This document shows positions 5,564 through 25,964 of a stretch of DNA of 64,000 nt, piece after piece (the first letter of the stretch is position 1; each line of letters begins with the position of its first letter). Below the pieces are notes generated by a model. That model worked only from the letters and a program-made list of their open reading frames with translations. It had not been told where the DNA came from and did no database searches. This stretch comes from Pseudomonadota bacterium (GTDB lineage: Bacteria; Pseudomonadota; Gammaproteobacteria; Steroidobacterales; Woeseiaceae), in assembly GCA_039821645.1 (NCBI GenBank), contig JBCBNU010000008.1:1576-65575 (forward strand). Reading direction: 5' to 3'. Both the position numbers and the translations under genes were made by a program.

Positions 5564-7042
5564 TTAGTCGACGCGCGCCAGCAACCGGATCACGAAAGAT
5601 GGTGCCCCTCCGCCGCTGTCGCCGTTCATAGCGCCGGTCAGCGCAATCTGCACACCAGTGACCGCCGCATCAAACCCATCAGCATCCGGCGTCGGCACGT
5701 AATCGAACGGCGCGCCACCCCCGGGCTGGTTGCTGAAGCGCACCCCCGTCGCAAAAGTGAGCGATACGCCGCTCGCCACCCCGCCATCGGTAAACACCAC
5801 CGGATCGCCTGAACCGGTATCCACAAAAAGAGAAAGGTCGTCCGGGATCACGTCGGTCAACACCAGCGTGTCGGTATCCACCGCACCCGAGCCAGTATTG
5901 GAAACACTGAGGTCATACGCTTTGATCGCACCGGGGATAGCGTAGGGGTTGGTCGTGCCGTTCACCGGGTCGGAAATCGTCGACGACACCTTGGTCACCT
6001 GCAGCTGCGGCAGGTCGCGCACATCAAGACAAACGTCATCAACGTGCCAGAAATCGAACGCGAGGCCCGAACCGCCCTCTTGGCGGAATCGAATCCGGAA
6101 CGCCGCATGCCGCGCGCCGACCGGCATCGCGTAGTTGCGATTAAAAATCTCGCCGGGCGTCCCGCTGCCACCAAACGTCTCGAGCAGTACCCAGGTGTTG
6201 CCTGAATCGAGGTACTCGATCGTGAAGTCTTCGATGCCATCGGGATTCTCGCTAAATGCATCGGCGCCGCGGCGTACCCACAGCGACACCGCATCGAACG
6301 CCGGGTCCGTCGTATCGATGGCATTCGAGGTGACGGTGACCTGCCCACCGTTCGTAAACAGACTCGCGCTGGGCGACTGGAAGGTTGCGCTACTGGTGCC
6401 CGCGTTGCCGCCGGCCGATGTCACCGTCCAGTTGGTCGAGAGTCCGGTATCGAACTCATCGCAAGTTCCGACAACAAGCGCGGGCGCTGCAACACGCTCA
6501 ACGACGCGAATGTCATCCACATGCCAGTAGTCAAAATCGTTGCCGGAGCCACCGGTCTGGCGCACCCGCAACGCGGTGTTCGCGTGCAATGCATCGGGTG
6601 GCAAGAAGATCGTATCCTGAAAAATCTGTCCTTCCGGGCCGCCACCGGGATAGGTGATGAGACTGCCCCAGGTGCCATTCGCGCGGCGATACTCGATCAC
6701 GAGATCTTCGCCGCCGTCCGGGTACTCGCTAAACGCATCGCTGCCGCGCCGCACCCAAAGGCTCACTTCCGCCGCGGGTACTGCCGCCGAGAACGTTGGG
6801 CCAGTCGTGATGACAGGATCGTGGCGCGTAAACAAACCGCGCGTGCCAGAGTTCGACACATCAACGCCGGTCAGGATGCCCGAGCGAAATCCGTTGTTCG
6901 TGGTCCACGGCGCAATATTGGCGCGCTCGAAATTATCCGTGAACAGCACATCGCCGGGTGCAGCAAAAGCCGCACCCGGAGCAAGCAGCGCGAACCACGT
7001 CATTGCGGTGCGCCAGTGTCTCAGGCGATGGGTCAGGGACAT
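5564..7042 (-). CDS. Secreted protein with two copies of a ~190-aa domain and a C-terminal DUF11/CARDB-like beta domain
   Basis: It has a signal peptide (WFALLAPGAAFAAP). The internal duplication is visible as LWVRRGSDAFSEYPDGGEDLVIEYRRANGTWGSL...DFDYWHVDDIRV versus LWVRRGADAFSENPDGIEDFTIEYLDSGNTWVLL...AFDFWHVDDVCL. The C-terminal segment LQVTKVSSTISDPVNG...YDLSVSNTGSGAV is DUF11-like. Confidence 0.7.
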   Translation of the reverse strand: MSLTHRLRHWRTAMTWFALLAPGAAFAAPGDVLFTDNFERANIAPWTTNNGFRSGILTGVDVSNSGTRGLFTRHDPVITTGPTFSAAVPAAEVSLWVRRGSDAFSEYPDGGEDLVIEYRRANGTWGSLITYPGGGPEGQIFQDTIFLPPDALHANTALRVRQTGGSGNDFDYWHVDDIRVVERVAAPALVVGTCDEFDTGLSTNWTVTSAGGNAGTSSATFQSPSASLFTNGGQVTVTSNAIDTTDPAFDAVSLWVRRGADAFSENPDGIEDFTIEYLDSGNTWVLLETFGGSGTPGEIFNRNYAMPVGARHAAFRIRFRQEGGSGLAFDFWHVDDVCLDVRDLPQLQVTKVSSTISDPVNGTTNPYAIPGAIKAYDLSVSNTGSGAVDTDTLVLTDVIPDDLSLFVDTGSGDPVVFTDGGVASGVSLTFATGVRFSNQPGGGAPFDYVPTPDADGFDAAVTGVQIALTGAMNGDSGGGAPSFVIRLLARVD

Positions 7043-17620: not shown

Positions 17621-17686
17621 CCACTCTCAAGAACGTGACGAAGTTCACATAACTCGAATCACGTGGATCACCTTGGGAGCACCGTC

Positions 17687-18907
17687 ATGTCGGCGCCTAT
17701 CGATTTCGCCCAATCGCCTGCATTTGACCTGGCTGACCCGGATTTCCACACCTATGGGGATGTGGACCAGGTATTCCGCGACCTGCGCAGAACAGAGCCC
17801 GTCTATTGGCAGCGGGAAAAAGACGGTCCCGGGTTTTGGTCGATCACCAAGTACGACGACATCGTCGCAGTATCGAAAAATCCCAAGATCTTCAGCTCCG
17901 ATCTGGAGCGCGGTGGATTCCACATCGAGGACAGCCGCACCTTCGCCGTGAATACCGGCACCAATATGATCACCAGTGACCCGCCGCAACATAGCGCTTA
18001 CCGCAAGGCGGTCGCGCCAGCGTTTGCGCCTACCCGCGTGCGCGAGCTGGCAGCCACCATTCAAAACTCTGTGGCTGAAGTCATGCAGGCATTGGCGTCT
18101 CGCAGCACTTTCGATTTCGTTGATCTCGTATCGGCACCCGTCGCGATCGATGTCCTCGCACGCTTGCTAGGGGCCAGCAGGAACAAGCAAGACCTGATTC
18201 GCTGGTCCGATGAATTGGTGGGCTATGACGATCCAACGGTGCGCTCTTCGGAAGCGGAAATCACCGAGAGCCTGCGACGCATGTCCATGTTCGCCCTCGG
18301 GCTGCGGTTGAAGTACTCCAAGGCGCCAGAAGACACGATGATCTCGATGCTGGTAAACAGCAAGACGGATGCTGGTAAGCCGATGAACGTCAGCGATTTC
18401 ATCGCGACCTTTATCCTGCTGATCGTCGCGGGTAACGAGACCTCTCGGAATGCGATCTCCGGCGGCATGCTCGCCCTGTTCGAAAACGCGCCGCAAAAGC
18501 GATTGCTCAGCGAGCATCCCGAACTTGCCAATGCCGCCGCCAACGAGATCGTGCGCTGGGTGACACCCGTGATCTACATGCGACGCACCGCGACCGAAGA
18601 CGTCACGTTGCGAAACACACGGATCAAAGCGGGCGACAAAGTTGTGCTTTGGTACACCTCGGGTAATAGAGATGAGGATACCTTTGAGCGCCCTTACGAG
18701 TTTGATATCACCCGCCAGAAAGCAGCGCATCTCGGGTTCGGTAGCGGTACGCACTATTGCGTCGGTTCACGGGTCGCACGGATGCAGATCGGCATCCTGT
18801 TTACGTCGCTGTTGCAGCGCTACCCGAATATTCAACTCGCAGGTGACGTCGAGAAGCTGCGCTCCAACTTCATCAACGGCGTCAAACGGATGCCGGTCAG
18901 TGTGTGA
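17687..18907 (+). CDS. Cytochrome P450
   Basis: The haem-binding loop is HLGFGSGTHYCVGSRVA. The I-helix is LLIVAGNETSRNAI and the ExxR motif is EIVRW. The ATG at 17687 has GGGAG 7 nt upstream. Confidence 0.9.
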   Translation: MSAPIDFAQSPAFDLADPDFHTYGDVDQVFRDLRRTEPVYWQREKDGPGFWSITKYDDIVAVSKNPKIFSSDLERGGFHIEDSRTFAVNTGTNMITSDPPQHSAYRKAVAPAFAPTRVRELAATIQNSVAEVMQALASRSTFDFVDLVSAPVAIDVLARLLGASRNKQDLIRWSDELVGYDDPTVRSSEAEITESLRRMSMFALGLRLKYSKAPEDTMISMLVNSKTDAGKPMNVSDFIATFILLIVAGNETSRNAISGGMLALFENAPQKRLLSEHPELANAAANEIVRWVTPVIYMRRTATEDVTLRNTRIKAGDKVVLWYTSGNRDEDTFERPYEFDITRQKAAHLGFGSGTHYCVGSRVARMQIGILFTSLLQRYPNIQLAGDVEKLRSNFINGVKRMPVSV

Positions 18908-18916
18908 ATCGGTGGT

Positions 18917-19999
18917 CTAGACGTCGTTATCGATGAACGAGAGCACGACCTGATCGACCGACGCGCCTTCAACGTGTGACAGTCCCACCGTGACGAAGGC
19001 ACTGAACGAATCGCGCACCCGAAAATGCGCTCGCGCCAGTACAACGGCAGCCGCCGACTGGTGATCGGGAATCGTAAACGTCAGAGAGCGCCGTCTGCCT
19101 GCATGGCGTCGTGTCAGTTCATCAACGAGCGCGCGCAGCGCATCGTCGGTGGTGTAAGCCATGTCTCCCACGATGAGCGCATTGTTCACGCCCGAGCGAA
19201 GTGCGGCGAAGGCTGCCGCGCACCCATGCTGGTCTTCGACGGCAACGAGGTCATAGTGGTGGTTTGGGCTTTTCTTGATTCGCCAATCGACAAACTGCGC
19301 ATCGCGCCTGCCGATCTGCCAACCACCCGCGACCAGTGATTGCCAAAGTCCGTCCATGAATTCTGGTGTGTAATCGACTACTTGATATCCGCTGCGCCGG
19401 AACGAGGCCCGGAGCGCATAGAAGCTGCGCGATACGAGATTCAATGCGCCACCCACTGGAGTTGCGAGCGCACCTGGCAGCCTCGATTTCAGATAGGCGG
19501 TAAAGTCGAGCGGCAGCACATAAATATCGAGCGAGTAACCGAGTTTGTGGCCTCCGAAGGAACGAACCTTGCCCGAAAGCGGGTTTGGAAACCCGAAAAT
19601 GAAATCGGAGCGTTCCCGTGCGTACTGCAGAAAGTCTTTCTGGAACTTGAGCGCCGGGCCAAGGCTACGGTGCTCCGGTTCGACGGCAAAATCGCCGAAC
19701 ACTGACCCGATTGCACGCTCACCCGCCACAACAAATTCGCGCGGGCTGAGGCACACCACACCAACGTTCCGCTGCTCCGGCTTGTAACTCAGGAATAGCA
19801 CTGTGCCTGCGCCCGCCGGATTATCCCGGTAATACCAATCCAGCTTCTCGCGTTGCGGTGGATTATCGCCAGGCAGAAAACGCCACAGACGCAGGATATC
19901 GTCAGCATCACGCTCAAGATCGCCCTCTTGAATCTCGTAGAGGTCGCTGACTTTCGCGCTACGTGGCTTTTCTGCGGACTGCTGCTGCACGGCACTCAC
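18917..19999 (-). CDS. GNAT-like acyltransferase (two-domain, 360 aa)
   Basis: An acetyl-CoA motif-A-like segment is VEPEHRSLGPALKF (R-x-x-G-x-A). The assignment rests on this motif and the protein size only. Confidence 0.55.
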   Translation of the reverse strand: MSAVQQQSAEKPRSAKVSDLYEIQEGDLERDADDILRLWRFLPGDNPPQREKLDWYYRDNPAGAGTVLFLSYKPEQRNVGVVCLSPREFVVAGERAIGSVFGDFAVEPEHRSLGPALKFQKDFLQYARERSDFIFGFPNPLSGKVRSFGGHKLGYSLDIYVLPLDFTAYLKSRLPGALATPVGGALNLVSRSFYALRASFRRSGYQVVDYTPEFMDGLWQSLVAGGWQIGRRDAQFVDWRIKKSPNHHYDLVAVEDQHGCAAAFAALRSGVNNALIVGDMAYTTDDALRALVDELTRRHAGRRRSLTFTIPDHQSAAAVVLARAHFRVRDSFSAFVTVGLSHVEGASVDQVVLSFIDNDV

Positions 20000-20583: not shown

Positions 20584-20702
20584 AAGTAGACAAAAGTCAC
20601 TGTTTTAGAAAAGAAAAACAAGAATAATCGGAATATTACAATCATTGCGTTGATTTTTCCGAGTAAAAACTCGACGATTTCCCGCCGGAAGGGAGTATTC
20701 AC

Positions 20703-23700
20703 GTGTTAGACATGAAATCAGTCTTGCGACAGGTTTGGGCGGGCGCCCTGATGGTGGTGATCGTCGGTACGCTGGCGGCTTGCTCGCCCTCAGGCGACGA
20801 CGAAGTGCAACTGCTGCCGATCGCGACGCCGGATACGGTCGGCCTTTCGCAGTCGGGTGCAGAATCCGCGATCCGCGGTGCGGGGCTTGAGGTCGGGACG
20901 GTCACCGTTGAGAGCAGCAACACCGTCGCCGCAGGCAGTGTGATTTCGCAGGACCCACTGGCTGGCACTGATTTGCCACAGGGTTCCACCGTCGATCTCA
21001 TCGTGTCGGGCGGCCCTGCCGACGTCCCGGTGCCCGACACCGCGGGCCTGAGCCAGGCTGAGGCCGAGGCCGCGATCGTGGCCGCCGGGTTTGTGGTCGG
21101 CACCGTGATCACAGAAGCGAGCGACACCGTCGCGCTCGGCGGTGTAATCCGGACGAGTCCACCCGCCTCCGACCTCCTAGCGCCTGGCAGCACCATCAAT
21201 TTGGTGGTCTCGGCCGGACCGAACAACACACCCGTTCCGAACGTCGCAGGGCTGAGCGAGGCCGATGCACGTGCAGCCATCCTTATGGCTGGGTTGACGA
21301 TCGGTAACGTTACGGGCGAAGCGAGCGACGTCGTGCCCGTCGGCAGTGTGATTCGCACCGACCCGCTCGTCGGCACAGAAATCACCGCAGGTGCACCCGT
21401 CGATATTATTGTCTCGCTGGGACCGGCCAATGTCGCGGTCCCCGATGTCACCAACCTCACCAGTGCTTCCGCCGCTCAAGCTCTGATTGATGCGGGGCTG
21501 ATCGTCGGAGACGTGACGTTCGCGGTCAGCGTCGATGTGCCGGCAGGCAGTATCATCAGCCAAGATCCGGCCGCAGCTGCGCTAGTCGCGGCAGGCACCG
21601 CGGTCAACCTTGTCGAATCACTCGGGCCCGATGCCGTTCCTGTTCCAGACATCGTGGGTCTGCAACAAGCCGATGCAGAGTCGGTGGTGACCACGGCCGG
21701 ACTTGCGGTCGGCAATATCGGTTTGCAGGTCTCGACGCTGGTGCCCGAAGGCGAGGTACTGAGTCAGTCGATTCCGCCTGGCACACAAGTGATTCCTGGC
21801 ACGACGCTCGACTTCGTGGTGTCTATCGGCGCACCGGTGACCGTACCGGATGTCACCGGCCTTAGCGAAGCTGACGCAAGCACCACACTCGTCGACGCGC
21901 GTCTGGTTGTCGGCAACGTCACGACACAAGAGGACTTGAACGTGCCTGCGGGCGATGTGATCTCTCAAAACCCCGCGGGGGGTGCGGTCGTCGATCCCCG
22001 CACAGCCGTTGACCTCGTCGTCTCGATTGGACCACCGACTACGGTCACACCGGGTGTCATCGGTCTCATGCAGATGGCCGCCGAACAGGCGGTTATCGAT
22101 GCACAACTGATCGTTGGGACGGTGACCCAACAACCATCGAACACTGTCGCTGCCGGTGTGGTTATCAGCCAGAGTCCAGCGGCCGGTGCCGTCTTGGTCG
22201 TCGGTAGTCCCGTTGATTTGGTCGTCTCCAGCGGTCCGCCGCAAGCGACTGTGCCGGACGTCGTTGGATTGACCGAGGCAGCCGCCGGCACCGCGCTTAA
22301 CAATGCAGGGCTCGTGACGGGCAACGTCACTCAGCAATCGTCGACCAGCGTCCCTGCCGGACAGGTCATCAGCCAGAACCCGGCAGCCGGATTGCAAGTG
22401 AACGCAGGCTCCGCGGTGGACCTTGTAGTGTCTTCAGGCCCGGCAAGCGTATCGGTACCGAATGTGGTGGGTCTCACTCAGGCCGCCGCCACCAGTACTA
22501 TTACCGGTGCCAACCTCGTGGTCGGCACCGTGAGTACGCAAACCTCCAACACGGTCGCCAACGGCGATATCATCAGCCAGAACCCGACGGGCGGTACCAC
22601 GGTCTCCGAAGGCAGCGCCGTTGATCTCGTTGTCTCCAGTGGCCCAGCAACGGTGTCCGTGCCGAACGTCGTTGGCCAATCGCAAGCCGCGGCCGAAGCA
22701 GCGATAACCGGGGCGAGTCTTGTGGTCGGCGTGGTTTCCAACGCCTCGTCAAACACCGTGGCGAGTGGTGATGTAATCAGCCAGAACCCGGCAGCCGGCA
22801 CGAACGTGACCGAAAACTCGGCGGTGAATATCGTCGTATCGACCGGCCCAGCCACCGCGTCGGTACCGAACGTCGTTGGCCTCTCTCAAGCGGCCGCGTC
22901 GAGCGCTATCACTGGAGCCAACCTGGTCGTTGGTAGCGTCACTACGCAGACGTCGAACACGGTCGCCAACGGCGATGTCATCAGCCAGAACCCGACGGGC
23001 GGTACCACAGTCTCCGAAGGCAGCGCTGTTGATCTCGTGGTGTCCAATGGCCCAGCAACCGTGTCCGTGCCGAACGTCGTGGGCCAATCGCAAGCGGCGG
23101 CCGAAGCGGCCATTACCGGGGCGAGTCTCGTGGTCGGTGTGGTCTCCAACGCCTCGTCGAACACCGTGGCGAGTGGCGATGTGATCAGCCAGGACCCGGC
23201 AGCCGGCGCGAACGTCGCCGAGAACTCGGCTGTGAATATTGTTGTATCGACCGGACCTGCGACGTCGAGTTTCACCGACGAGTTCAACGATGCGGCCTCG
23301 CTGTCCGACTGGTCGCTGCGCCACCAGGTTGAAGGCACGAACCAGCAATACAGCACGCTTGACATCGACACCTCGCGCGCTGGCTATCTCGTGTTGATTC
23401 CCTCGGTGCGATCGGGATGGTTTGCCTCCGGCAGAGCACCGCTCGTATTCAAGGAAATCACCGGCAACTTCGCTGTGCAGACTTATGTGGTTGCACGCAG
23501 CCTTGGCTCGGCGAGCGTAGCGCCTGCGAGCGAGTTCAACTCGGCCGGTCTACTCGCGCGGAATCCGGCTGGCGCAACAGGGCCTGAAAACTACATCATG
23601 GTGAACCTCGGCCGGCAGGATACCCGCATCGCGGGCAGTATCGGCAGCGAGGCCAAAACCACGGTGAACTCGTCCTCTACCCTGACGCTCGATGCTGCCG

Positions 23701-23936
23701 GGTTCGAGGGCGACATCCTGCTGTGCCGAGTGGGCAATGAGATGATCGCGTATCGCAGACTGGCAGCCGATCCGGATTGGGTGGAACTCGATCGCTATAC
23801 CCGCGCGGATTTACCCGCAACCTTGCAGGTCGGCCTCGTAGTCAACGCGTTCCAAATGCCAATCGACATTCGTGCCGAGTTCGACTACGTCCGCGAGCTG
23901 CCAACACCGAGCAACGACACGCAGTGCACGCCTTGA
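20703..23936 (+). CDS. Lipoprotein with 12 tandem PASTA domains and a C-terminal ConA-like/DUF1349-like domain
   Basis: The lipobox is VGTLAAC. Twelve ~68-aa repeats have the form VPxVVGLsqaeAeaaIxxAGLvVGxVtxxxSxtVaxGxViSQxPaaGtxvxxGsaVdLvVSxGP, which is the PASTA consensus. The last ~255 aa (FTDEFNDAASLSDWS...) form a non-repeat beta-sandwich-like domain. Confidence 0.85.
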   Translation: MLDMKSVLRQVWAGALMVVIVGTLAACSPSGDDEVQLLPIATPDTVGLSQSGAESAIRGAGLEVGTVTVESSNTVAAGSVISQDPLAGTDLPQGSTVDLIVSGGPADVPVPDTAGLSQAEAEAAIVAAGFVVGTVITEASDTVALGGVIRTSPPASDLLAPGSTINLVVSAGPNNTPVPNVAGLSEADARAAILMAGLTIGNVTGEASDVVPVGSVIRTDPLVGTEITAGAPVDIIVSLGPANVAVPDVTNLTSASAAQALIDAGLIVGDVTFAVSVDVPAGSIISQDPAAAALVAAGTAVNLVESLGPDAVPVPDIVGLQQADAESVVTTAGLAVGNIGLQVSTLVPEGEVLSQSIPPGTQVIPGTTLDFVVSIGAPVTVPDVTGLSEADASTTLVDARLVVGNVTTQEDLNVPAGDVISQNPAGGAVVDPRTAVDLVVSIGPPTTVTPGVIGLMQMAAEQAVIDAQLIVGTVTQQPSNTVAAGVVISQSPAAGAVLVVGSPVDLVVSSGPPQATVPDVVGLTEAAAGTALNNAGLVTGNVTQQSSTSVPAGQVISQNPAAGLQVNAGSAVDLVVSSGPASVSVPNVVGLTQAAATSTITGANLVVGTVSTQTSNTVANGDIISQNPTGGTTVSEGSAVDLVVSSGPATVSVPNVVGQSQAAAEAAITGASLVVGVVSNASSNTVASGDVISQNPAAGTNVTENSAVNIVVSTGPATASVPNVVGLSQAAASSAITGANLVVGSVTTQTSNTVANGDVISQNPTGGTTVSEGSAVDLVVSNGPATVSVPNVVGQSQAAAEAAITGASLVVGVVSNASSNTVASGDVISQDPAAGANVAENSAVNIVVSTGPATSSFTDEFNDAASLSDWSLRHQVEGTNQQYSTLDIDTSRAGYLVLIPSVRSGWFASGRAPLVFKEITGNFAVQTYVVARSLGSASVAPASEFNSAGLLARNPAGATGPENYIMVNLGRQDTRIAGSIGSEAKTTVNSSSTLTLDAAGFEGDILLCRVGNEMIAYRRLAADPDWVELDRYTRADLPATLQVGLVVNAFQMPIDIRAEFDYVRELPTPSNDTQCTP
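22449..23264 (+). repeat. Direct tandem duplication of a 408-bp two-PASTA unit inside the lipoprotein gene
   Basis: Copy A (22449-22856) and copy B (22857-23264) align base for base with no indels. By eye they are roughly 85-90% identical, with many third-position differences. The protein repeats 9-10 and 11-12 are nearly identical. Confidence 0.8.
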
Positions 23937-23945
23937 TCAGCGAAT

Positions 23946-23976
23946 GAGTCAGGCGGGTTAATCGCCCGCCTGACTC
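23946..23976. terminator. Perfect 12-bp GC-rich hairpin between convergent genes (GAGTCAGGCGGG-N7-CCCGCCTGACTC)
   Basis: Read directly from the sequence. The right arm encodes the last 6 codons (ESQAGD) of gene 23958-25964 and the loop contains its stop codon. There is no U-tract on either side. Confidence 0.45.
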
Positions 23977-25964
23977 TCTGCCTGTTTCGCGGCCTGCTCA
24001 CGACGGTAATCGACGAACGCACGATACTCGGCAGCGCTCAGCTCGCCGTCCTTGTTCTGATCAAAGTTGCTTAGGCCACCCTCGGTGAACGCCTGGCGCA
24101 TGTCGTTGGGCATCTCCGCCGGGTCGAGACTTCCATTAAGATCATCGTCCATCGCGCCATAGAACTGGTTGATGCTGAACTGCAACGGATCATGTACCGG
24201 CGCCTCGACCGTGCCGTCTTTCCAGCGGAAAAAGAACCCGCCGTACAGCATTTCCTCGAATGACTGCAGCCCCCAATAGACGGGCTTCGTCGCATCAGGG
24301 TTCGACGGATTACGCTCGCTGTTGTCGTATACCGTGCGGTGCACGAGGCGTGTGCCCGCGGGCACCTCGACCGGCTGTTCAAGTGTGTAGGTATGCTGCC
24401 AGTTGAAGTCGTAACGGGGCACATGCAATAGCGGGGTTACCTTGCCGTCCGGGTAGTGCAGATCAAAGCTCGTGCTCTTGCCGCGGTAGTGCGCGTGTGG
24501 GAACAGGCTGTAGATCACCGCGTCTTCATCGAACTCAAAGTAACCGCGCTCCTGGTGATCACCCTCGCCTGGCGGAATCTGGATATCCCATCCCATAACG
24601 ACCTGTTGACGTAGATGGAATTCGGGTGGCTCCTCGTGGAAGTACAGCGCCACCTCTGACACATCGGTCACCTCACGTCCATAAGTCGTGTAGTGCATTT
24701 GCAGGTTGATCATGCCACCTGCTTTCACAAATACGCCGGTGCCTTCGGGGTAGATGTAGGACTCCTGGCCAGGCGCATAGCCCATCAGGTAGTTCTCGAA
24801 CACCGCCTCCAGCTCACGCTCTTCCGGTACTGGCTGCTCCGAGGTGCCGATCAGCACGTGGTGCACAACCTTGCCTTCACCGGGCTTGATCGTCACTGCG
24901 CGCACCCACACGTCTTTATCGAGTGGGTTCTCAATCGCGGGGAACTGGTAATCGACCACGCCAGTCGCGGGCACCGTGAACGCGGGCGACTGGACCACAA
25001 GATCCGGCTCGCCGAGCGGCCATGCTTCCGGCAACGGTGTCACGGCCTTCAACGGGTCAGGCCCTTCTCCACGAGGTGCGCCCGCTTCGATCCAGTGCAC
25101 GAGCGTTTGCTTCTCGGCAACAGTCAATGCACGCGACGCGCCGATCGGTGGATGATCATCTTCGACCGATACCTCCCACGGTGGCATACGGCGCGTACGT
25201 ACAACCTCGCGAATCATCGGCGCAAACCCACGCACCATCTCGTAGCTCGTCATCTCCCACGAACCAATACCGCCGGGTCTATGGCACGTCGTGCACCGCT
25301 CCTTGAGCATCGGCGCGATCGTTTCGCTGTAGCTGATTTCTGCATGCTGCGCGGTCAGCTCACGCTCCGGGAAGTTCACGATACATCCTACCGCCGGGCG
25401 GCTCGGGTTCGCCACTTCACGGCCTGCAACCACATTGGCGAGCGCGTCCTTCAGGTAGTGCTGCGTCGCTTCCTGCTTTTGCGTCTCGTAGCCCACACGA
25501 TCACTCAGCGCGCCTCGGTAGGCGATCTTCCAGTCGTTAGTGGTGATCACGAGTACCTCACCGGTACGGTCGAGCTCGAGTGCCTCGCCGATCAGCTGCG
25601 TCTCATCTTTGAGAATCGGCATGTCGATACCGAATGCTTCCGCTTCCTCGCGGATCGCCGCGCGCGTGTCCTGAAGACTCGCGTTGATCATGGCGAATAC
25701 CACACCCTGATCTGCGTATTCGTCGCGAACCGCCTTGTAGTCGGAAATCAGGTTGCGACCAATCGGGCAGGCGTTGCCCTGCACCATCAGAACGATAGCC
25801 TTCTGGTCTTTGTAATAGTAGAGCTCGTGTGACTTCCGGTCCTGATCCAGCAGGCGAAAATTCTCAACTCGTTCCACTTTGGCATGCGCTGTCGACGCAA
25901 GGCCGATTAACGCGAGAATAAACAGTCCCAATCGCATTTGCGTAGTCCCCATGAACGCAATCAA
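23958..25964 (-). CDS. Secreted multidomain protein: thioredoxin-fold (redoxin) domain, c-type haem motif, PHM/DBH-like two-copper monooxygenase domains and two EF-hands
   Basis: It has a signal peptide (LFILALIGLASTAHA). The redoxin-like N-terminus is KAIVLMVQGNACPIG. CTTCH is a CXXCH motif. CuH-like His residues are in VVHHVL and LQMHY. CuM-like ligands are in PHAHYRG and EEMLYG. The EF-hand loops are DDDLNGSLDPAE and DQNKDGELSAAE. Confidence 0.7.
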   Translation of the reverse strand: MIAFMGTTQMRLGLFILALIGLASTAHAKVERVENFRLLDQDRKSHELYYYKDQKAIVLMVQGNACPIGRNLISDYKAVRDEYADQGVVFAMINASLQDTRAAIREEAEAFGIDMPILKDETQLIGEALELDRTGEVLVITTNDWKIAYRGALSDRVGYETQKQEATQHYLKDALANVVAGREVANPSRPAVGCIVNFPERELTAQHAEISYSETIAPMLKERCTTCHRPGGIGSWEMTSYEMVRGFAPMIREVVRTRRMPPWEVSVEDDHPPIGASRALTVAEKQTLVHWIEAGAPRGEGPDPLKAVTPLPEAWPLGEPDLVVQSPAFTVPATGVVDYQFPAIENPLDKDVWVRAVTIKPGEGKVVHHVLIGTSEQPVPEERELEAVFENYLMGYAPGQESYIYPEGTGVFVKAGGMINLQMHYTTYGREVTDVSEVALYFHEEPPEFHLRQQVVMGWDIQIPPGEGDHQERGYFEFDEDAVIYSLFPHAHYRGKSTSFDLHYPDGKVTPLLHVPRYDFNWQHTYTLEQPVEVPAGTRLVHRTVYDNSERNPSNPDATKPVYWGLQSFEEMLYGGFFFRWKDGTVEAPVHDPLQFSINQFYGAMDDDLNGSLDPAEMPNDMRQAFTEGGLSNFDQNKDGELSAAEYRAFVDYRREQAAKQAESQAGD

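Follow-up and report, generated by a model that had tools for sequence, protein, structure and literature searches.

Twelve PASTA units between a lipid anchor and a ConA-like head domain in a Woeseiaceae protein: a candidate length-variable stalk

What role could twelve consecutive PASTA domains have in a diderm bacterium, on a protein with neither a kinase nor a transpeptidase domain? The question is raised by a gene in the DNA analysed here, a stretch of 64,000 nucleotides (referred to below as the window; positions 1,576 to 65,575 of contig JBCBNU010000008.1, assembly GCA_039821645.1) from a gammaproteobacterium of the family Woeseiaceae, a dominant and globally abundant group of marine sediments. 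The gene is an uninterrupted open reading frame (ORF) at 20703..23936 (+) that starts with GTG and, according to the ORF list and its translation, encodes 1077 amino acids (aa). To our knowledge, PASTA domains have been studied only as sensors in one to five copies on kinases and penicillin-binding proteins (PBPs). From the sequence of this protein and of its relatives, we favour a reading to which we give about an even chance: that the protein is a stalk of variable length, anchored in the outer membrane and probably located at the cell surface, which presents a head that binds a ligand, probably a glycan.

Lipid anchor, PASTA array and head domain

At the N-terminus of the protein (MLDMKSVLRQVWAGALMVVIVGTLAAC), a positively charged n-region and a hydrophobic core precede the lipobox L-A-A-C, in agreement with the pattern used here to recognise signal peptidase II lipoproteins (a positive n-region, an h-region and [LVI][ASTVI][GAS]C within the first ~35 residues). 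In alignment A2, all 20 orthologues share Cys27, and only three of the scanned homologues with PASTA units were without a lipobox, two of these three being named partial. Across the family, the +2 residue following the lipobox cysteine is Ser, Gly or Thr and never Asp. Processing by signal peptidase II would leave the lipidated Cys27 as a membrane anchor. As the +2 residue is Ser here and never Asp in the family, and as LolB is encoded in the genome, the Lol pathway should then carry the lipoprotein to the outer membrane. LolB, together with a TonB-dependent receptor gene two genes downstream of the PASTA gene, also identifies the host as diderm, as a preliminary description of this DNA had supposed from gene content. 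It is conceivable that the lipoprotein is instead retained in the inner membrane, with the array projecting outward through the periplasm like a Gram-positive PASTA ectodomain. Sorting rules beyond the Enterobacteriaceae are poorly defined, and this orientation would mimic that of the kinase ectodomains, but the +2 residues of the family argue against retention and the periplasm would still be too narrow for an extended array. We regard this arrangement as highly improbable.

The twelve PASTA units follow one another every 66-70 aa, with nearly no linker between them. Pfam assigned them to PF03793 (PASTA) in 12 stretches with an E-value of 4.9e-166 and a score of 539 bits, well above the gathering score of 23.2 bits, and single units scored 44-63 bits. 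No kinase, transpeptidase or transglycosylase family matched the protein in Pfam at E ≤ 1. The NCBIfam model NF033483 (PknB/Stk1) aligns solely via its profile positions 365-563, which are its PASTA part, and the protein does not belong to that kinase family. When PDB sequences were searched, the units matched the ectodomains of Stk1/PrkC from Staphylococcus aureus and PknB from Mycobacterium tuberculosis (E 6.5e-20 to 6.2e-06). An AlphaFold model of the whole protein, built on a 20-sequence alignment, contains 12 identical beta-alpha-beta-beta-beta units (mean predicted local distance difference test score [pLDDT] 79, predicted TM-score [pTM] 0.33), each modelled (pLDDT ~80) as the PASTA fold of ~65-70 aa, with one helix on a small beta-sheet, and superposable on solved PASTA structures. 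These results bear out the preliminary description in three respects: the repeats are genuine PASTA domains rather than members of another Ig-like family, there are 12 of them, all within one ORF, and they form a stand-alone lipoprotein without a kinase or transpeptidase.

The modelled geometry of the array is that of the kinases. Using Foldseek, three consecutive model units aligned with 3M9G, a crystal structure of three PASTA domains in extended form, at a target-normalised TM-score (TMt) of 0.73 and a root-mean-square deviation (rmsd) of 4.4 Å, with 5E10 at TMt 0.73 and with 5E12 at TMt 0.60, while the compact PASTA pair of S. aureus PBP1 (7O61/7O4C) fitted poorly (TMt 0.43-0.44, rmsd 13-16 Å). 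At the level of the model, then, the array is a linear, kinase-type rod. The earlier proposal that the extended array would exceed the width of the periplasm stands at this same level, the units being superposable on the extended PknB/Stk1 ectodomains.

The composition of the array is unusual. It contains no Lys, Trp, Tyr, His or Cys, has 62 Asp and Glu residues against 6 Arg for a net charge of about -56, and Val, Ala, Gly, Ser and Thr account for 63% of its residues. On circumstantial grounds, such an acidic, Lys-free array would be an unlikely surface for the binding of anionic peptidoglycan.

Identity among units R1 to R8 is ~40-60% pairwise at the amino acid level, while R9 and R11 are 87% and R10 and R12 96% identical. 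The high identity of these last pairs points to tandem duplication of a two-unit block of 408 bp, and Tandem Repeats Finder reports a period of 408 with 84% identity. The two copies of the block are 83-89% identical at the nucleotide (nt) level; as this is below their protein identity, we conclude that both copies have been kept under purifying selection. Collapse or expansion of the repeats during assembly was considered and rejected, since the block copies differ and an independent metagenome-assembled genome (MAG) has the same 12 units: assembly L018 carries a 12-unit gene of 1077 aa (P0004) with 95% identity to the window protein.

The array is followed by the head domain, which the preliminary description had given as a ConA-like domain of ~255 aa. 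Its size is in fact 223 aa, and the ConA-like assignment is right at the level of fold. With the head alone as query, Pfam gave no match at E ≤ 10 and the PDB sequences gave none that was meaningful, so the domain could be identified only through its homologues and its predicted structure. The AlphaFold 2 (AF2) model of the head, built on a 29-sequence alignment, is a nearly all-beta sandwich (pLDDT 90.2, pTM 0.90) with 184 PDB structural matches at E ≤ 0.001, which place the model in the ConA-like superfamily fold. The top Foldseek matches are the DUF1349 structures 3MEP and 3O12 (TMt 0.71-0.75), followed by the C-terminal ConA-like domains of glycoside hydrolase family 43 (GH43) and by legume lectins; sequence identity between the head and lectins is 8-16%. 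Three head homologues pass the gathering score of 32.4 bits for PF07081 (DUF1349), namely P0033 (114 bits), P0035 (33.7 bits) and P0070 (34.5 bits). The head itself does not, and because the link is transitive, via homologues, we term it DUF1349-like rather than a member of DUF1349.

An exhaustive phmmer search with the head against 1.84 billion representatives returned 988 clusters at E ≤ 0.001. These homologues occur as stand-alone domains, in tandem (up to five copies, P0033) or joined to Big_7, PKD, TSP3, esterase or type IX secretion system (T9SS) sorting domains. Four to five tandem head-domain copies are found in the metagenomic proteins P0033 (1432 aa), P0034 (979 aa) and P0005 (756 aa). 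Two cysteines of the head, Cys1008 (in LCRVG) and Cys1075 (in QCTP), are co-conserved, both being present in 71 of the 72 domain copies that cover both positions. This co-conservation suggests a disulfide and, with it, an extracytoplasmic, oxidising compartment. Eight polar residues of the head are invariant in the orthologue alignment: D859, R953, N963, E983, K985, R1009, R1034 and D1036.

These polar residues could form an active site, and the head might then be an enzyme (such as a glycoside hydrolase or polysaccharide lyase), making the protein a tethered exo-enzyme in either the periplasm or the extracellular space. GH16 enzymes and others like them have a ConA-like fold, 1GBG (a GH16 beta-glucanase) and 3WVJ (a "glycosidic hydrolase") were among the Foldseek matches (both TMt ~0.5), and the GH43 C-terminal domain reached a query-normalised score (TMq) of 0.67-0.69. 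The GH43 C-terminal domain is itself accessory rather than catalytic, however, the best matches are DUF1349 structures (non-enzymatic or of unknown function) and legume lectins, and the ExDxxE motif typical of GH16 was not found in the head by eye. An enzymatic head is thus, in our estimation, distinctly unlikely.

Relatives and the role of the array

In the assembly searched (2.94 Mb, 122 contigs, 90% complete), a six-frame search gave 12 PASTA matches, all in this ORF, which is therefore the sole PASTA gene found. Within the genus, 17 of the 18 other species-level genomes have PASTA matches (7-12 each), and in every orthologue examined a single ORF holds all of the units. PASTA is mostly absent from the other genera of the family and order, and in an even sample of the class any PASTA match was found in 14 of 299 other genomes.

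Among homologues found via the head, the family layout is a lipobox, a number of PASTA units (2, 4, 5, 7, 8, 9, 10, 11 or 12) and a head. The number varies even over short distances: orthologues with ~95-97% identity to the window protein have either 10 or 12 units, L019 having a single block of the R11-R12 type (10 units) and L018 having all four of the corresponding units. This architecture is common to all but one of the orthologues examined. The exception belongs to genome G014 of the same genus (L033 8766-10295 (+)), where a protein of 509 aa with the lipobox LGAC and seven PASTA units ends directly after the last unit and has no head.

The array is also replaceable. The closest head relatives without PASTA units (P0040, P0042 and P0045; 52-55% identity) are lipoproteins, with P0049, P0051 and P0053 also close. 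In these PASTA-less relatives, a disordered, low-complexity acidic linker of ~40-150 aa, rich in Asp, Gly, Pro and Ser, lies between lipobox and head. That a linker takes the place of the array indicates that the lipid anchor and the head are constant, while the middle part is interchangeable.

Conversely, long arrays are found with other partners. A database search with the array returned 2,199 proteins at E ≤ 1e-20. Units were counted in 103 of these proteins with a hidden Markov model built from the window repeats; their number ranged from 6 to 27, and only one of the 103 has a kinase domain. Many array matches consist of a lipobox and PASTA units only, such as P0222 (12 units by Pfam), and others carry EF-hand, FG-GAP, CotH/LTD, DUF1349, Laminin_G_3 or InlB-B-repeat modules; the named sources are Hydrogenedentes, Planctomycetota and Pseudomonadota MAGs. 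P0210 has a 10-unit PASTA array whose span includes a DUF1349 match (residues 432-574). Twelve units are thus not exceptional, as kinase-less arrays of 6-27 units are abundant in metagenomes, and the rarity that the preliminary description had implied is not borne out, either here or in the genus. The architecture proved to be common, and in the literature searched it has not been characterised; no paper was found there on poly-PASTA kinase-less lipoproteins, on PASTA domains in Woeseiaceae or on the function of DUF1349. A 2016 review gave PASTA domains as restricted to Firmicutes and Actinobacteria. Database labels for proteins of the window type already read "PASTA domain-containing protein".

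PASTA domains of diderm phyla also occur in very different settings. A protein of 1829 aa from an Acidobacteriota MAG (L025 4044-9533 (+)) combines an animal-haem-peroxidase domain, RTX repeats, two PASTA domains and Laminin_G_3; judged by its sequence, it pairs PASTA with a ConA-fold domain for a second time, independently of the window protein. A "delta proteobacterium" MAG encodes a 3257-aa RHS-repeat protein (L026 4368-14141 (+)) with a beta-helix, FG-GAP, one PASTA domain and Big_2; its C-terminal domain is fumarylacetoacetate-hydrolase-like, an odd tip for an RHS protein. In G020, of the same family as the window genome but a different genus, Pfam identified a reprolysin-like metalloprotease, four Calx-beta and two C-terminal PASTA domains in a protein of 1940 aa (L032 4324-10146 (+)), which shows, judging from its domain content, PASTA as a module of a large predicted secreted protease. 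With the head family occurring alongside T9SS, PKD, Big_7 and TSP3 domains, and PASTA in RTX, RHS, reprolysin/Calx-beta, FG-GAP and EF-hand proteins, both modules are found elsewhere in proteins predicted to be sent beyond the outer membrane, which supports the favoured reading.

Under that reading, the main task of the PASTA array would be that of an extended stalk, acidic and variable in length, which at ~40 nm would be longer than the periplasm is wide, and the conserved ConA-like head would probably be the working part, binding a glycan or similar ligand. Display at the cell surface is favoured, since a rod of ~40 nm would not fit across the periplasm, and could serve adhesion or polymer capture in marine sediment. 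Gain or loss of units by tandem duplication or deletion would tune the reach of the head. We take the array to be mainly a spacer rather than a peptidoglycan sensor for five reasons: its unit count varies, a linker can replace it, it is acidic and Lys-free, its model is linear, and both modules occur in exported proteins. In particular, the presence of 10 or 12 units in near-identical orthologues would be a poor fit with a strict periplasm-spanning geometry. The functions proposed in the preliminary description included a cell-wall or glycan sensor, an adhesin and a spacer; the comparisons made here would favour, ahead of a cell-wall sensor, a spacer or stalk whose head binds glycans or serves as an adhesin.

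Several considerations weigh against this reading. The pTM of 0.33 leaves the long-range shape of the modelled rod unsettled, and its length is an estimate based on ~3-3.5 nm per unit, a value that we assume from the PknB/PrkC ectodomains. For a lipoprotein to be exposed on the surface of a gammaproteobacterium, some export pathway is required, and none was identified; a search for Slam (PF04575) gave no match, although control genomes were likewise without a match. The +2 sorting rule is derived from Enterobacteriaceae and may not transfer to the Woeseiaceae lineage. Kinase PASTA domains bind muropeptides, so that a role in peptidoglycan binding is still conceivable. For DUF1349, no known ligand was found in the literature searched. 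Lastly, the head-less protein of G014 (L033) suggests that the array may have a role independent of the head.

Some of these points would suit a periplasmic, peptidoglycan-associated protein, anchored in the inner leaflet of the outer membrane, whose units bind multivalently along the sacculus and which acts as a tether between outer membrane and peptidoglycan, as a ruler or as a cell-wall sensor, with the ConA-like domain binding glycan strands or a periplasmic partner. In PknB/PrkC-type kinases, it is established that muropeptides are bound by the PASTA module, and the units of the window protein are most similar to those of kinases. Default Lol sorting leads to the periplasmic face, for which LolB is present, and the Slam search (with its equally negative controls) identified no surface-export system. 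The seven-PASTA protein of G014 may function by its array alone, and LpoA and LpoB are outer-membrane lipoproteins with long linkers through the sacculus. Against this stand the charge and lack of Lys of the array, and a unit number that ranges from 2 to 12, differs between near-identical strains and fits the fixed width of a periplasm poorly. In addition, relatives substitute a disordered linker for the array, a rod of 12 extended units would be too long for the periplasm, and other diderms place PASTA in RTX, RHS and T9SS-type secreted proteins, away from peptidoglycan. We consider a periplasmic protein of this kind unlikely, if well worth keeping in view. A more general version, in which poly-PASTA lipoproteins as a class are periplasmic rulers or tethers whose arrays, anchored to the outer membrane, bind the cell's own peptidoglycan multivalently, with unit number setting or sensing the spacing between outer membrane and wall and the head docking on glycan strands, seems to us very unlikely.

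The gene is a complete example of a long, kinase-less PASTA array on a lipid anchor, in the probable role of a stalk with interchangeable end domains, a design that is widespread in uncultured diderms (2,199 database matches, up to 27 units) and nearly universal in one Woeseiaceae genus. If the stalk reading is true, the PASTA fold would be separated from peptidoglycan sensing, a length-tunable surface spacer would be new to diderm cell biology, and the orphan DUF1349-like family (988 clusters) would gain an extracellular binding context; the window protein would be a pointer to peptidoglycan-independent use of PASTA in diderm envelopes. If it is instead a periplasmic ruler, a "Gram-positive" PASTA module would be a structural part of the diderm envelope in an abundant sediment clade.

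The locus and its surroundings

The features of the gene and its immediate flanks are collected in Table 1. The upstream neighbour of the PASTA gene is divergent and the downstream neighbour convergent, with UbiX and GNAT genes upstream and a redoxin-Cu-monooxygenase gene followed by the TonB receptor gene downstream. Synteny around the locus is restricted to the closest relatives, and unrelated neighbours are present in distant members of the genus and in a second genus. No conserved operon partner was found among the orthologue loci compared, and the protein thus appears to work alone. A functional association with the biosynthetic cluster upstream or with the TonB receptor close by was rejected on the grounds that the neighbours change in distant relatives. 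The GC content of the gene (0.61-0.62) is near that of its flanks (0.58-0.60). Long antisense ORFs within the gene were rejected as genes, being by-products of GC-rich repeats.

Table 1. Features of the PASTA lipoprotein gene and its flanks (window coordinates)
Feature	Coordinates	Strand	Basis
Shine-Dalgarno-like GGAAGGGAG; 7 nt between its end and GTG	20687..20695	+	Read from sequence
Type-II signal peptide, aa 1-27; lipobox LAAC, predicted lipidated Cys27, +2 Ser	20703..20783	+	Sequence
Acidic tether SPSGDDEVQLLP, aa 28-39, from anchor to first PASTA unit	20784..20819	+	pLDDT <50 in whole-protein model
Twelve head-to-tail PASTA units, aa 40-853	20820..23261	+	Pfam, per-unit six-frame coordinates, repeat alignment, model
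R9-R10, first copy of duplicated two-unit 408-bp block	22446..22853	+	L018 units 1-2 orthologous, 88% nt identity
R11-R12, second copy of block	22854..23261	+	Orthologue of single block in 10-unit L019 allele, 94% nt identity to u1/u2
Head domain, aa 855-1077, 223 aa, predicted DUF1349-like ConA-fold beta-sandwich	23265..23933	+	AF2, Foldseek, homologues
GC-rich 12-bp hairpin GAGTCAGGCGGG / CCCGCCTGACTC, perfect, without T-tract, between convergent genes	23946..23976	.	Read from sequence

The loop of the hairpin at 23946-23976 holds the stop codon of the minus-strand downstream gene, and the hairpin is possibly a bidirectional terminator or a 3' stabiliser. A scan for consensus promoters and terminators called nothing for the PASTA gene, and this hairpin was also not called.

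Three of the neighbouring genes have features of their own. The convergent neighbour (23958-25964 (-)) encodes a protein of 668 aa with an AhpC/redoxin domain and a copper type-II monooxygenase C-terminal domain, an unusual fusion, and the end of its sequence shows EF-hand-like motifs. An ORF of 360 aa between the P450 and UbiX genes (18917-19999 (-)) has no Pfam match and is 56-97% identical to its counterparts in relatives. The cytochrome P450 gene (window 17663-18907) sits between an alpha/beta-hydrolase gene and this 360-aa gene in the window, L018 and L020. It is absent from the otherwise syntenic L019 (compared site L019 ~6163-6218), and L027 and L028 are also without a match.

Comparison with known systems

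The array resembles most closely the ectodomains of the PknB/PrkC/Stk1/StkP kinases (3M9G, 3PY9, 2KUI, 5E10 and 5E12), with which it shares PF03793 (E 6.5e-20 to 3PY9) and, in the model, a linear geometry. The array of S. aureus PrkC, moreover, ends in a beta-sandwich (Ig-like) domain. Unlike these kinases, the window protein has no kinase domain and no transmembrane helix, is lipid-anchored and has 12 units rather than 3-5. It also differs in its diderm gammaproteobacterial host, its very acidic, Lys-free array and its ConA-like terminal domain. With PBP2x and S. aureus PBP1 (7O61, 7O4C) it shares the placement of PASTA domains outside the cytoplasmic membrane, but it lacks the transpeptidase domain of the PASTA-tailed PBPs, and the compact PBP1 pair superposes poorly on it.

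The best structural counterparts of the head are the DUF1349 proteins ECA2234 (3MEP) and yeast YJL217W (3O12). The solved DUF1349 proteins are small, stand-alone and of unknown function, whereas the head is ~40 aa longer, has the conserved Cys pair, and is predicted to be exported and tethered. In function, an analogy may be drawn with the glycan-binding surface lipoproteins of the SusE and SusF type in Bacteroidota, in which a lipid anchor and tandem beta-rich modules hold carbohydrate-binding domains off the outer membrane. The analogy is functional only, as the domain families are unrelated and the surface location of the window protein is a prediction. Furthermore, the genes for SusE and SusF lie in polysaccharide-utilisation loci beside those for SusC and SusD, while the window gene is without a conserved neighbour.

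Close in overall design are other, metagenomic poly-PASTA proteins, such as the 12-PASTA lipoproteins P0222, P0226 and P0241 and the 27-unit protein P0181. Like the window protein, they combine a signal sequence or lipobox with a long kinase-less array and, often, a distinct end domain. They differ in that this end domain may be absent or an EF-hand, FG-GAP, CotH/LTD, Laminin_G_3 or InlB B-repeat module, in that many of them come from other phyla, and in that several of their arrays contain ~3-4% Lys. In the window protein, a known domain family takes an uncharacterised architectural form, not unique but typical of a large metagenomic class.

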